A DNA stretch of 52,902 bases from an uncultured Gammaproteobacteria bacterium (GTDB taxonomy: Bacteria > Patescibacteriota > Patescibacteriia > Magasanikbacterales > UBA922). The position numbers were made by a program, and so were the translations under genes. Below the pieces are notes generated by a model, which was given only the letters and a program-made list of their open reading frames with translations, searched no databases and had not been told where the DNA came from. Positions 329 through 12,120 of the stretch are shown here, piece by piece (the stretch's first letter is position 1; each line of letters opens with the position of its first letter). Location: NCBI GenBank assembly GCA_964571295.1, contig CAZNAO010000002.1, positions 8,594 through 61,495 of the forward strand. Reading direction: 5' to 3'.

Positions 329-682
329 TTACTGTTTTTTAAATTTGACTGAAAAAATGGGTTCGTAATTATTCTTGTATTCATCTGAGAGTTCGAATGT
401 TTCACCTTTCATCATTTTGGTCAAGGCGATATCATTGAGCATTTCATTATCTGATTCAAGATCAATTTTCAAATCATCAAGCTTTTGCATTTCACTTGCG
501 AATCCTTCTTTGATCGCAGTTTCTACACGTTTTTTGTTTTCACGAAGAGATTTCATTTTGTCAGTGATTTCTTGATATTCACCATTACTCGCAAGCGCAT
601 CCCGAAACATCACTTTAATATCCTTCATTTCTTTTTTAGTTTTTTGAATACGGTCGAATATTCCTTGAATATCTTGTTCCAT
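329..682 (-). CDS. hypothetical coiled-coil protein
   Basis: 117-aa ORF rich in K/E heptad-like sequence. It is tightly packed with its neighbours on the same strand. Confidence 0.5.
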   Translation of the reverse strand: MEQDIQGIFDRIQKTKKEMKDIKVMFRDALASNGEYQEITDKMKSLRENKKRVETAIKEGFASEMQKLDDLKIDLESDNEMLNDIALTKMMKGETFELSDEYKNNYEPIFSVKFKKQ

Positions 683-790
683 AGTTTTTTATTATATAAG
701 TGGGATTATTGTATCACAATGAGTTCTAATATCCAATATCTTCAATACCCTCTATTTAACAGCTCGCGCCATCGAATATGAGCCATTGAA

Positions 791-7332: not shown

Positions 7333-7914
7333 ATGAAACACGAACTCTATCACCTTCCCTATGATTTCAATGCTCTTGAGCCGCATATTGATGCCACAAC
7401 GATGGAAATACACTATACCAAACACCACCAAACATACCTTGATAATTTTGTGAAAGTGGTCGAAAAATATCCAGAACTCCAGGAGAAAACAGCTGAAAAC
7501 ATATTGCGATCATTATCTTCTCTTTCAATTGATGCAGCTGACCAGAAAACACTTCAGAATCATGGTGGAGGATTCGTCAATCATAATTTATACTGGTCGA
7601 TCATGGGTCCCGCGAAACAAATCGACGAGTTACTGAAAACAGAGGTTGAACATGCATTCGGTTCAGTTGAGTCATTTAAAAAAACATTCAGTGAACTCGC
7701 TACCAAGCATTTTGGTAGCGGATGGGCATGGCTCGTACGAGACGAACAAGGCTCTCTTGCAACCTATACACTACCCAATCAAGATTCTCCGTATCTCAAA
7801 AATCATACCCCACTCATCGGACTCGATGTCTGGGAGCATGCATACTATCTTAAATATCAAAACAAACGTGCAGACTATATTACTGCATGGTGGGAAGTGG
7901 TCACCCTCCTATAG
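7333..7914 (+). CDS. sodA: Fe/Mn superoxide dismutase
   Basis: HHQTY, DVWEHAYYL and other SOD_Fe/Mn signatures. Confidence 0.95.
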   Translation: MKHELYHLPYDFNALEPHIDATTMEIHYTKHHQTYLDNFVKVVEKYPELQEKTAENILRSLSSLSIDAADQKTLQNHGGGFVNHNLYWSIMGPAKQIDELLKTEVEHAFGSVESFKKTFSELATKHFGSGWAWLVRDEQGSLATYTLPNQDSPYLKNHTPLIGLDVWEHAYYLKYQNKRADYITAWWEVVTLL

Positions 7915-7972
7915 TTTTGATTCTATTCTGTATTTTGACCGTTTGACAAAAACCAATTTTTCGGTTACTTTT

Positions 7973-8294
7973 GGGGTAGAATCATTCGCCCCCATACTTT
8001 AGGTGTCCAACCTGGAGTCTGTGGGTGAAAGTGCGTATTCCCCCAGGGACAGCTCTGGGGGGTTCCCTCCAGAGAAACTCTAGCTGGAGTATAGGCTATG
8101 CCGGTGTCTTGTAACGCACATACAGCAACCGCTGCTCCTGCAAAGTTGAGCGCGAACTCTGTATAACACCGGCAATCATGCAACCGTAGGCGAGCGGAAA
8201 CATGATCGAGTTTTGACACTTCCTAGTACGTGTGACGGCTACTGGGAAGTGTCTCTGTCCTGTGGACTTTTAAGAAAAAAAGGGTGAAGGACAA
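7973..8294 (+). ncRNA. candidate structured ncRNA of unknown class (strand tentative)
   Basis: GC-rich patch with no credible ORF. Six or more perfect helices, e.g. 8100-8107/8166-8173, 8215-8228/8240-8253 and 8040-8046/8055-8061. Upstream is TTGACA(7943)-17 nt-TACTTT; downstream is the terminator at 8295-8331. Confidence 0.4.
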
Positions 8295-8331
8295 CAAAAA
8301 ACCCTGTACCGTTCTGGTGCAGGGTTTTTTG
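8295..8331. terminator. bidirectional intrinsic terminator (rpoD on the minus strand, candidate RNA on the plus strand)
   Basis: 10-bp stem ACCCTGTACC/GGTGCAGGGT with a 5-nt loop, flanked by an A-run and a T-run. Confidence 0.7.
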
Positions 8332-8346
8332 TTTCATTCTCAGTCT

Positions 8347-9693
8347 TTAGTAATCACTCAACTTTTCAATCACCTCAAAACTCTTGATCTTCTCAATCGC
8401 TTTTGCTTCAATCTGACGGATACGTTCGCGGGTGACGCCGAATTCCTTACCCACTTCTTCAAGTGTATGTGTAACTCCGTCTTCGAGACCGAAACGCATT
8501 TCAAGAATTTTCTTTTCACGCGGAGAGAGATCCTGGATCGCTTCGCGAATATAGTCTTTTAGCAATTCAGATCCTGCAGCCGCAGACGGACTAATATTCT
8601 TCACATCTTCGATAAAGTCTGAAAGCGAGGTGTCATCATCGTCATCATCTCCGACCGATGTTTCAAGGGAAACCGTGTCCTGCGAAATCTTGATGATATG
8701 TTTGACTTTCTCGACGTCTTCACCCATTTCTGCTGCAATTTCCTCAGGTGTTCCGTCGCGACCCAAATCCTGTAACAATCGTCGTGACACCTGCTGCAAT
8801 CGATTGATCGTTTCCACCATATGCACCGGGATACGGATAGTGCGTGAATGGTCAGCAAGCGCACGCGTGATCGCTTGTCGAATCCACCATGTCGCGTAGG
8901 TCGAAAATTTGAATCCTTTTCGATAATCAAATTTCTTAACGGCACGGAAGAGACCAATATTCCCTTCCTGTATAAGATCAAGTAAGGATAATTGTTTTCC
9001 TACAAACTTCTTTGCAATTGAAACGACGAGACGCAGATTTGCCTCGATCATGCGACGTTCGGCCTCCTTGTCTCCACGTTCCTTGCGTTTTGCAAGCGAC
9101 ATTTCATCTTCAGCATTGAGCAAGGGAACTTTTCCTATTTCTCGTAAATACATCTGGATCGAATCCTGTGAGATACTTCCAAGATCAAAATATGATCCTG
9201 TGTCCCGATCCGGTTGATCCCCCTGAAAACTCCGGAGCATTTCCTTCTTTTTCTCGACCGATTGTTTCCCGCCGAGCAATCCTTCCTGTCCTTCAACCAA
9301 TGAAATACTGCTCTTGTCAAGCAAATTCAAAAAATATTCGTACAGATCGAGATAATGCTCGACTCTTGGAAATTTCAATAGGACTTCTTTTTCAGTGAGA
9401 AATCCTCGATTACGCCCTTTGTTTACAAAATCCTGAACATCTGACGATGTAGGCGGCAATACTAAGTCCTGTGTCTCAGGCCGCCGTTTGAATTGCGGCC
9501 TATTCCCTGTATTGATTTTTTTTTCGTTCTTTTTTCCTCGAAAGAAGCGAGGAGTTTTTTTCTTGTGAGCCCTTGATGATTTAGAGCTCTTGGCACTTCG
9601 TGCCCGTGATGGTGCCGCCTTTTTTGAGGCGGTGGTAAATTTTTTCTTTGCCTTACTCAGCAAAGATTTGGTTGTCGATGGTTTTTTGGCCAT
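8347..9693 (-). CDS. rpoD: RNA polymerase primary sigma factor with a long basic N-terminal tail
   Basis: Regions 1.2-4 are present: [39 protein letters not shown]. Confidence 0.95.
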
Positions 9694-11569: not shown

Positions 11570-11659
11570 ACTACTCTCGAGAGTACTCTATTGTGTACAA
11601 CTTGGCAAGATTTTATCCATGACTATTGACTTATACTGTCACCAGCATATACTTATTGC

Positions 11660-12120
11660 TTGTGCCTAGTGTTTATGGATGACCTACTCCCCCAACCTGG
11701 ATGCAATCCAGGTAAAGGAAAACCCGTCATGCGTGGTGTCATCGTGAATGGTGTTTCAAAATTGTTCTCTGTCCTGAGTTCTGGTCTGAAGCGTCTCCGT
11801 GCCAAGCGGAATCCTCACCAGAACCCTAGGACCTCTCCCGCCTCCACACAGAAGAAGGTCCGCGAGCGGCACACCCACTCCGCTGCTGCCCGTGACGAGA
11901 TGGATCTCATTGATTTCCGCTGACATAGCTCCCCAGTGAGCCTCTTCGTCACGGCCACTACGGCTGTAGTGCCTCGTTCCGACGAGGATCCTTTGTCGCC
12001 ACATTCGTGATCCAGGGGGAGGAGCCATCACACGCAAACACCGCTCGCATCCCCATTGCCGAACCCGATATCTATCGGATTTAGCAAAAGGAGAACCTAC
12101 GAGCGGTGTTTTTGTTTTTA
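11660..12120 (+). ncRNA. candidate large structured ncRNA of unknown class (strand tentative)
   Basis: 460-nt GC-rich intergenic block between dnaG and the kinase gene; only Arg-rich junk ORFs. Eight or more perfect helices, e.g. 11695-11702/11706-11713, 11778-11785/11817-11824, 11890-11898/11946-11954, 11956-11961/11966-11971 and 11972-11977/11982-11987. Promoter TTGACT(11626)-16 nt-TATACT. Terminal stem 12038-12047/12100-12109 is followed by TTTTTGTTTTT. Confidence 0.4.

Follow-up and report, generated by a model that had tools for sequence, protein, structure and literature searches.

A candidate genus-restricted structured RNA gene between sod and rpoD in a Magasanikbacteria genome

The described systems that come closest to the locus considered here are the large non-coding RNAs OLE, GOLLD, ROOL and raiA motif RNA. 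Like it, they are found as stand-alone genes of several hundred nucleotides (nt), they have covarying multi-helix folds in which long-range helices close multi-way junctions, and their function is not readable from context. Bacteria of the candidate phyla radiation (CPR) have tiny genomes of about 0.9 Mb, and to our knowledge almost nothing is known of their regulatory or structural RNAs; a search of the literature on non-coding RNAs of CPR bacteria or Patescibacteria turned up no relevant report. The locus lies in a 52,902-nt stretch of DNA (contig C2, CAZNAO010000002.1, positions 8594-61495, of assembly GCA_964571295.1; hereafter the window, in whose coordinates positions are given) from a host, coded G000, that is a CPR (Patescibacteria) bacterium, Candidatus Magasanikbacteria. 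Between a sod-like gene and a convergent rpoD we find what we take, with a probability of roughly 0.7, to be a stand-alone plus-strand gene whose product, a structured non-coding RNA that is new and restricted to one genus, is about 350 nt long here and some 300-450 nt long in relatives. Judged by its sequence, the locus represents a candidate new and narrow family of structured non-coding RNAs, one without a match among the families described so far. The original prediction for this locus had offered two choices, a very atypical or reduced rnpB or an unrelated RNA, and it is the second that the present analysis supports, by conserved position, a conserved promoter of the RNA's own, and covarying helices.

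Seven copies were compared, those of G000, G007, G008, G009, G004, G005 and G001. A DNA search of 40 relatives gave a full-length match in G007 only (85% identity) and a partial match in G008. The copies in G009, G004 and G005 were added by reading the regions downstream of rpoD in congeners and by nhmmer, and a pattern scan of named genomes re-found these three only; the copy in G001 was added by R1, a covariance model of the 5' module of the RNA, with 49.6 bits. All seven are immediate downstream neighbours of rpoD, in convergent orientation, and six follow sod, G005 being the exception. In the host the locus is single-copy. As had been claimed, the block is GC-rich, with a G+C of 0.517 against 0.444 for the genome; its description as ORF-poor needs the qualification that it is not wholly free of open reading frames (ORFs), since an 84-amino-acid (aa) minus-strand ORF, not conserved among the homologues, overlaps it.

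The boundaries of the predicted gene are as follows.

7943-7948, plus strand: -35 hexamer TTGACA, invariant in all seven homologues and always 17 nt from the -10 hexamer
7966-7971, plus strand: -10 hexamer TACTTT, of the form TAnnnT in all seven copies
~7979-8330, plus strand: RNA gene, from the predicted promoter to the two-way terminator
8296-8330, both strands: two-way intrinsic terminator, composed of A6, CCCUGUACC, a loop, GGUGCAGGG and U6, common to the RNA and rpoD

The promoter put forward in the original prediction, TTGACA-17 nt-TACTTT, is present, and TTGACA-17 nt-TAnnnT is kept in all seven carrier species, including G005, where the upstream gene is not sod. It begins 29 nt past the sod stop codon, and its spacing predicts a transcription start near 7978-7980. 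A generic consensus scanner did not list the site, because the -10 hexamer matches TATAAT at only three of six positions. The strong bidirectional terminator is also real: it folds as a 17-base-pair (bp) stem that is preceded by an A-run and followed by a U-run, and on both strands weak matches to leader families (Rfam, E <= 10) cover it alone, by their terminator part. The RNA would thus have its own sigma-70-type promoter on the plus strand, and its transcription would end at a terminator shared with the convergent rpoD. The rpoD transcript reaches that terminator 16 nt past the rpoD stop codon, and because it does so from the other strand the RNA is not the rpoD 3' untranslated region (UTR), the reading on which the idea of a non-coding RNA was to have been given up. 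No terminator lies between sod and the RNA, so the RNA sequence is probably also the 3' end of sod transcripts. What is found, in sum, is the arrangement expected of a stand-alone small-RNA gene, a conserved promoter and a terminator that bound a conserved non-coding sequence without a conserved reading frame.

The terminator hairpin has a distribution of its own. Close versions of AAAAAACCCTGnACC...GGTnCAGGGTTTTTT (84-98% identity) stand at dozens of sites, spread over several of the genus's genomes and some genera besides; examples are G000:C4:26052-26092 and G000:C8:13044-13083, and rnpB is directly followed by one copy. Strong constraint on a terminator sequence could account for this, as could a small mobile repeat that resembles a terminator.

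On the plus strand, positions 7975-8335 fold at -156.1 kcal/mol, with z = -8.84 against shuffled sequence; the minus strand of the locus has z = -6.96. The elements of the plus-strand fold are these, in order.

7987-8027, plus strand: H1, the 5' hairpin, with a core of 7996-8004/8010-8018 plus an outer extension; in all seven copies, with differing sequences
8028-8043, plus strand: C-rich linker, consensus RCGUCUCCCC, here GUGCGUAUUCCCCC; sequence conserved in all seven copies
8044-8052, plus strand: P2 5' strand, CAGGGACAG, half of the long-range junction-closing helix, with its partner at 8255-8264
8053-8074, plus strand: H3 hairpin, CUCUGGGGG ... CCCUCCAGAG, arms 8053-8061/8066-8074, with a loop of 4-17 nt among species
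8075-8080, plus strand: P4 5' strand, AAACUC, pairing with 8208-8213
8081-8207, plus strand: variable domain inside P4, with three hairpins here; 100-200 nt and different in other species
8208-8213, plus strand: P4 3' strand, GAGUUU, pairing with 8075-8080
8215-8253, plus strand: H5, a 14-bp hairpin directly 5' of the P2 3' strand; in all seven copies
8255-8264, plus strand: P2 3' strand, CUGUCCUGUG, within the 10-mer CTCTGTCCTG
8265-8295, plus strand: 3' tail, with ACUUUU, an A-run and an AGGACA box at 8288-8293

The same elements recur in the free folds of seven sequences that are barely alignable between subgroups. H1 varies from 15 to 21 bp. The consensus of P2 is CAGrGGaCAG with CUGuCCyCUG, that of H3 is CUCUGGGG ... 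CCCUCCAGAG, and that of P4, which encloses the 100-200-nt variable domain, is AAAyyC with GrrUUU. H5 has at least 6 continuous basal pairs in every copy, and about 16 or more overall in the folds, with arm sequences that are almost wholly different; the ACUUUU of the tail is conserved in six of the seven. With the innermost P2 pair fixed, P2, H3 and H5 form together in all seven copies, and P4 forms as well in five. Since the joints between helices are only 0-3 nt long, the core is read as a four-way junction, in which P2 would close upon H3, P4 and H5, with H1 and the linker placed upstream. This junction state is the free minimum-energy fold in three of the seven copies and lies within 1.2 kcal/mol of it in two more. 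Possible partners of the linker are the G-run before it and the H3 5' arm, though covariation supports neither pairing.

How do the helices proposed earlier compare with this architecture? Those at 8100-8107/8166-8173 and 8175-8180/8201-8206, both within the variable domain, and the hairpin 8215-8228/8240-8253, which is H5, are borne out, and G007 retains 8100-8107/8166-8173 through C-G to U-A and wobble changes. Three others fall away: 7973-7976/7989-7992 is upstream of the likely start and not conserved, 8011-8017/8067-8072 conflicts with the covarying H1 and H3, and 8040-8046/8055-8061 is an alternative pairing rather than the covarying H3. The long-range helices P2 (8044-8052/8255-8264) and P4 (8075-8080/8208-8213) had been missed.

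The comparative alignment and covariation test recommended for this locus were carried out, and the fold is kept in seven diverged copies. For H1 and H3 we used a covariance-model-based alignment of the seven sequences, with 500 shuffles and a control in which the pairing partners were slid. In these two helices 83.4% of cells are paired, versus 38-54% with the partners slid, and 13 of 25 pairs change on both sides (9/16 in H1 and 4/9 in H3), versus 5.9 +/- 1.8 in the shuffles; none of the 500 shuffles reached any of the observed measures. Among these seven related sequences, then, helices are kept by compensatory substitutions beyond what the controls give. The P2 duplex forms in every copy, at -11.5 to -19.4 kcal/mol, and has undergone an A-U to G-C change in G004, the loss of one base per strand in G001, and two one-sided compatible changes. 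P4 covaries at three positions (CUC/GAG, UCU/AGA and UUC/GAA among species), and the arms of H5 share little past the closing pairs. G-U pairs are frequent in the helices, as at one pair with four G-U and three G-C, and their presence places the RNA on the plus strand. Two sets of counts were given less weight: column-wise pair counts from MAFFT were discounted, as indel-shifted helices fall out of register, and junction-anchored compensatory counts, which register shifts inflate, were not taken at face value.

The covariance-model search that had been suggested, on both strands, agrees that the locus falls outside known families. At the Rfam gathering score no family matches the interval, and at E <= 10 over 7900-8360 on both strands there is no match to RNase P, transfer-messenger RNA (tmRNA), 6S or signal recognition particle (SRP) RNA. 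The 26 weak matches that do appear at E <= 10 leave the 5' core uncovered and fall without exception between about 8150 and the terminator, in the 3' part of the locus; OLE (RF01071), GOLLD (RF01998), ROOL (RF03087) and raiA (RF03072) are not among the 26.

Where else is the RNA found? R1 gave no true match outside the genus in 107 family or 151 order genomes. A 24.9-bit R1 match in another genus lies inside a 159-aa ORF that appears to resemble ndk and was treated as false. A metagenome scan for close RpoD relatives found no congeners, the best being 75% identical, and R1 matched 0 of 36 loci. Of the sequencing runs listed, none is recorded as RNA. Near-identical short contig pieces from wastewater, activated-sludge and bioreactor samples cover parts of the RNA; they come from four runs, one of which was guessed to be RNA, and are silent on expression and transcript ends. 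Within the genus the distribution is uneven. In G002 sod is followed directly by the terminator and rpoD, and the RNA is missing; it is missing in G003 too, where a structured block unrelated to it fills the slot; the G006 contig is broken at rpoD, and the rest of that genome gives no R1 match. On the RpoD tree G002 and G003 are nested among the carriers, so the RNA would have been present in the genus ancestor and later lost or replaced. In G001 copy 1 and rpoD are instead separated by a second copy, in tandem and diverged (L072:~420-760, minus strand), which retains H1, the linker, P2 (CAGGGguCAG with CUGCCCUG), H5, the tail and the terminator. An RNA that is missing in at least two species and duplicated in one is accessory rather than essential.

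Some further observations were made at the same genomic position. The G003 block (L062:2900-3175, minus strand) is about 280 nt long, runs from a promoter-like site to a terminator, is G+C-rich and has z ~ -7.9; it has no sequence similarity to the RNA and may represent another RNA gene, unrelated to the first, in the same slot. In most genera of the family the spacer downstream of rpoD is shorter than 150 nt. The only long one, that of G079 (L033, ~420 nt downstream of rpoD), holds a cluster of palindromic hairpins, CCCCUCC...GGAGGGG, which look like a repeat family unrelated to the RNA. By its RpoD, which shares 93% identity with the G000 protein, G004 belongs with G000 and G007 (support 100/100); its RNA, however, looks like the G009 one (75% over 117 nt) and can hardly be aligned with the G000 one (rpoD/RNA boundary ~8330-8347; L017, L024). 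This conflict between gene trees suggests recombination near the common terminator, or accelerated change in the G000 and G007 RNAs. The record of G005 (L155, CAYSXR010000019.1) is titled 'uncultured Gammaproteobacteria bacterium'; as its RpoD and its RNA place the genome in the Magasanikbacteria genus, the label is probably wrong.

What might the RNA do? A non-coding RNA of 350 nt whose fold is under selection in so small a genome implies a real function. The conserved nucleotides lie mainly in and beside the junction helices and not in open loops, and the peripheral helices keep their shape and not their sequence. Given this pattern and the large size of the RNA, action through the fold is the most likely mode, and we tentatively suggest, at somewhat less than even odds, that the RNA is a regulator whose three-dimensional fold binds protein or serves as a scaffold. 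In a rough apportioning among functions, this fold-based action is the leading candidate while falling a little short of an even chance; base pairing or switching is a minority possibility; a cis role for sod or rpoD and a selfish or decaying element are each quite unlikely; and a ribozyme or a small-protein mRNA would each be a slender prospect.

Several points count against the stand-alone RNA gene, or against parts of that reading. Gene status is read from sequence, and the plus-strand transcript and its ends are predictions. The covariation statistics are weak, with 7 distinct sequences that are related to one another and come from one genus, and the alignment of H1 and H3 was fitted to a model, which biases it toward the proposed structure. 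P2 shows just one true compensatory swap plus one paired deletion. P4 is weak in G005 and G001, where it is possible only as an all-A-U helix, and in G008 and G005 the junction state loses to an alternative hairpin by 8-10 kcal/mol. The proposed mode of action draws its support solely from where conservation lies, and the loss of the RNA in some species means that its function is dispensable.

Of the alternatives, the one that survives best is that the RNA is a base-pairing riboregulator or a conformational switch, which we consider unlikely. As a riboregulator it would pair with mRNAs through CUCCCC of the linker, CCCUCC of H3 or the strands of P2; as a switch it would toggle between the junction state and a state in which the H3 5' arm is occupied by the linker and the P2 3' strand by a AGAGGACAG-like box farther downstream. 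The linker sequence is, after all, conserved in all seven copies, and alternative pairings recur. Pairing of the linker plus CAGAG against CUCUG plus the G-run (the H3 5' arm) is possible in every copy; in G005 and G008 it grows to about 15 bp, giving the alternative hairpin just mentioned and the minimum-energy fold. The downstream AGGAYA box, with which the P2 3' strand can pair, is present in six of seven copies, and that of G008 makes a terminator-like hairpin of -18.0 kcal/mol. But G- and C-runs yield alternative pairings by chance, and the duplex of the P2 3' strand with the downstream box is weaker than P2 in every copy and comparable in G008 only. In G004 the compensatory change follows P2 and leaves the downstream box with a C-A mismatch, so covariation favours P2. 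No conserved target was found, the sole candidate being a 10-mer shared with a locus at 11.6-12.1 kb of the window and not conserved past G007; and an RNA of 300-450 nt with five conserved helices is bigger and more complex than typical seed-pairing small RNAs. A two-state design is nonetheless possible for the modelled structure. A bolder proposal, for which the odds seem slim, is that the RNA is the founder of a new CPR class of complex-fold RNAs; its conserved four-way-junction core would then be a site of catalysis or ligand binding, or the centre of a new ribonucleoprotein, and its competing C-rich/G-rich pairings would give a two-state switch.

The locus at 11.6-12.1 kb (window 11626-12120) itself runs from promoter to terminator, has a G+C of 0.537 and has no Rfam match. 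The original prediction had noted that it shares two 10-mers with the RNA, and these are exact, each occurring within the window only at the two loci; they had been called not collinear, yet they stand in the same order in both. One of them, CTCTGTCCTG, is the P2 3' strand. The suggested link finds no support, the motif being kept only in G007. The body of the second locus is likewise kept only there (91% identity), and more distant congeners keep its terminator only. G008, G009 and G004 do not have the motif at this locus, and the nearest string at the corresponding locus of G005 does not follow the variant of G005's own P2. We treat the sharing of the 10-mers as coincidence or as a very recent feature.

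Might the locus have no role in trans, and serve sod and rpoD only as a structured 3' UTR or insulator, or be an insertion that is selfish or in decay? We find this very doubtful. One can point to the position between convergent genes, to the lack of a terminator separating sod from the RNA, to the absence, replacement and duplication recorded for G002, G003 and G001, and to the very fast change of the RNA sequence relative to RpoD. Against it, the RNA's own promoter is kept in 7/7 copies, G005 without an upstream sod among them; compensatory change is extensive and indicates selection on the fold; and the locus, single-copy in G000, has no match among phages, plasmids or viral contigs.

That the locus is the mRNA of a small protein is more improbable still. 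A short frame, SP.EDS...PPEK.L, recurs in several copies, but it coincides with the most conserved paired nucleotides, those of P2 and H3. The spacing of its two blocks is 17, 17, 30, 29, 27 and 30 nt (mod 3 = 2, 2, 0, 2, 0, 0), so no reading frame is kept, and in G004 and G005 the second block falls in different frames. The small-protein ORFs range from 20 to 86 aa, with inconsistent start codons that lie inside H1, and substitutions such as GGACA to GGGCA with UGUCC to UGCCC track base pairing and not codon positions.

A very divergent tmRNA, SRP RNA or 6S RNA, otherwise undetected in the assembly, is hardly credible. The suggestion arises since searches of G000 found no tmRNA, 6S or SRP RNA, even though SmpB is encoded. 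The tmRNA option is countered by ARAGORN, which finds no tRNA-like domain at the locus and no tmRNA in the window or the G000 genome, and by five congeners that have standard tmRNAs of 97-117 bits at other loci. Four of these, G008, G004, G005 and G009, carry the RNA as well, so the locus is not tmRNA; from the five congeners it also follows that the tmRNA gene of G000 is probably unassembled. The assembly has 0.907 Mb in 59 contigs, is 99.5% complete and contains ordinary 100-N scaffold gaps only. We note that smpB lies at G000:C40:267-689 in this 59-contig assembly without a tmRNA gene.

For SRP RNA, the models RF00169 and RF01854 detect nothing in G000 or five of its congeners, as one would expect in a genus none of whose 10 genomes has the Ffh M domain (PF02978). 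The SRP-type GTPase domain of Ffh and FtsY (PF00448) has only partial scores, at the level of the P-loop, in the genus and in 61 family and 81 class genomes, and motif scans of G000 also found no SRP GTPase. SRP subunits have been reported absent in many CPR bacteria (PMC8080830). The locus has no conserved GNAR-capped domain IV, and H3 and H5 have freely varying apical loops. By eye one hairpin on contig C18 is SRP-like, but it has no SRP match at E <= 1 and was set aside. The 6S RNA model (RF00013) detects nothing in the G000 genome or at the locus, whose fold is branched and not a rod with a central bubble. For all three RNAs, dispensability within the genus speaks against a housekeeping role.

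Finally, the idea of a very atypical or reduced RNase P RNA, whose chance is negligible, may be dismissed: the short strings quoted in its favour are indeed present at 8023-8035 and 8075-8096, with AAAAGTCCAC on the opposite strand, but neither RNase P model (RF00010/RF00011) matches the locus on either strand at E <= 10, the recommended search for a canonical rnpB found a full-length RNaseP_bact_a gene on contig C8 (G000:C8:12636-13048, 153.8 bits, model positions 1-367), the locus folds as a four-way junction plus 5' hairpin with no P4 pseudoknot and no universal motifs in register, AAAAGTCCAC is the reverse complement of the RNA's own tail (conserved 6/7) and so is on the wrong strand for the RNase P motif, and an essential ribozyme would not be absent, as the RNA is, from two congeners and every other genus searched.

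The protein-coding neighbours of the predicted RNA gene are the following.

7333-7914, plus strand: sod-like ORF, 193 aa, the upstream neighbour of the RNA locus
8347-9693, minus strand: rpoD ORF, 448 aa, convergent with sod

The reach of the candidate family is limited, as it is found in one genus and is dispensable there. A new RNA family with a clear architecture is nevertheless a concrete object for experimenters, and the exclusion of RNase P, tmRNA, SRP and 6S RNAs removes a tempting misannotation.

How, then, does the RNA stand beside described systems? RNase P RNA of class A (RF00010) is of similar length, and the RNA shares with it G+C enrichment in an A+T-richer genome and a few short strings; it differs in having no model match, a different helix topology and a distribution that is not universal within the genus. 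6S RNA (RF00013) is likewise stand-alone and structured. The primary sigma factor is the partner of 6S RNA, and our RNA, which is probably abundant, adjoins the primary sigma factor gene. In contrast to 6S RNA, it has a branched four-way junction, ends that do not pair with one another, and no match to the model, and its adjacency to rpoD may be inherited gene order in a young genus. In position the nearest relatives are the type I 3' UTR-derived small RNAs, of which MicL and DapZ are examples: like them the RNA comes directly after a protein gene on the same strand, has its own promoter, and shares a terminator needed by the upstream mRNA, here that of sod. Those small RNAs are short, Hfq-dependent and seed-acting, whereas the RNA is about 350 nt long with a complex conserved fold and no identified seed, and in G005 its upstream gene is not sod. 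In size class and design the RNA comes back to OLE, GOLLD, ROOL and raiA motif RNA, from which it is set apart by lacking a match to any of them in Rfam at E <= 10, by its confinement to one genus and by its combination of a 5' hairpin with a four-way junction; it is also smaller than OLE, GOLLD and ROOL.

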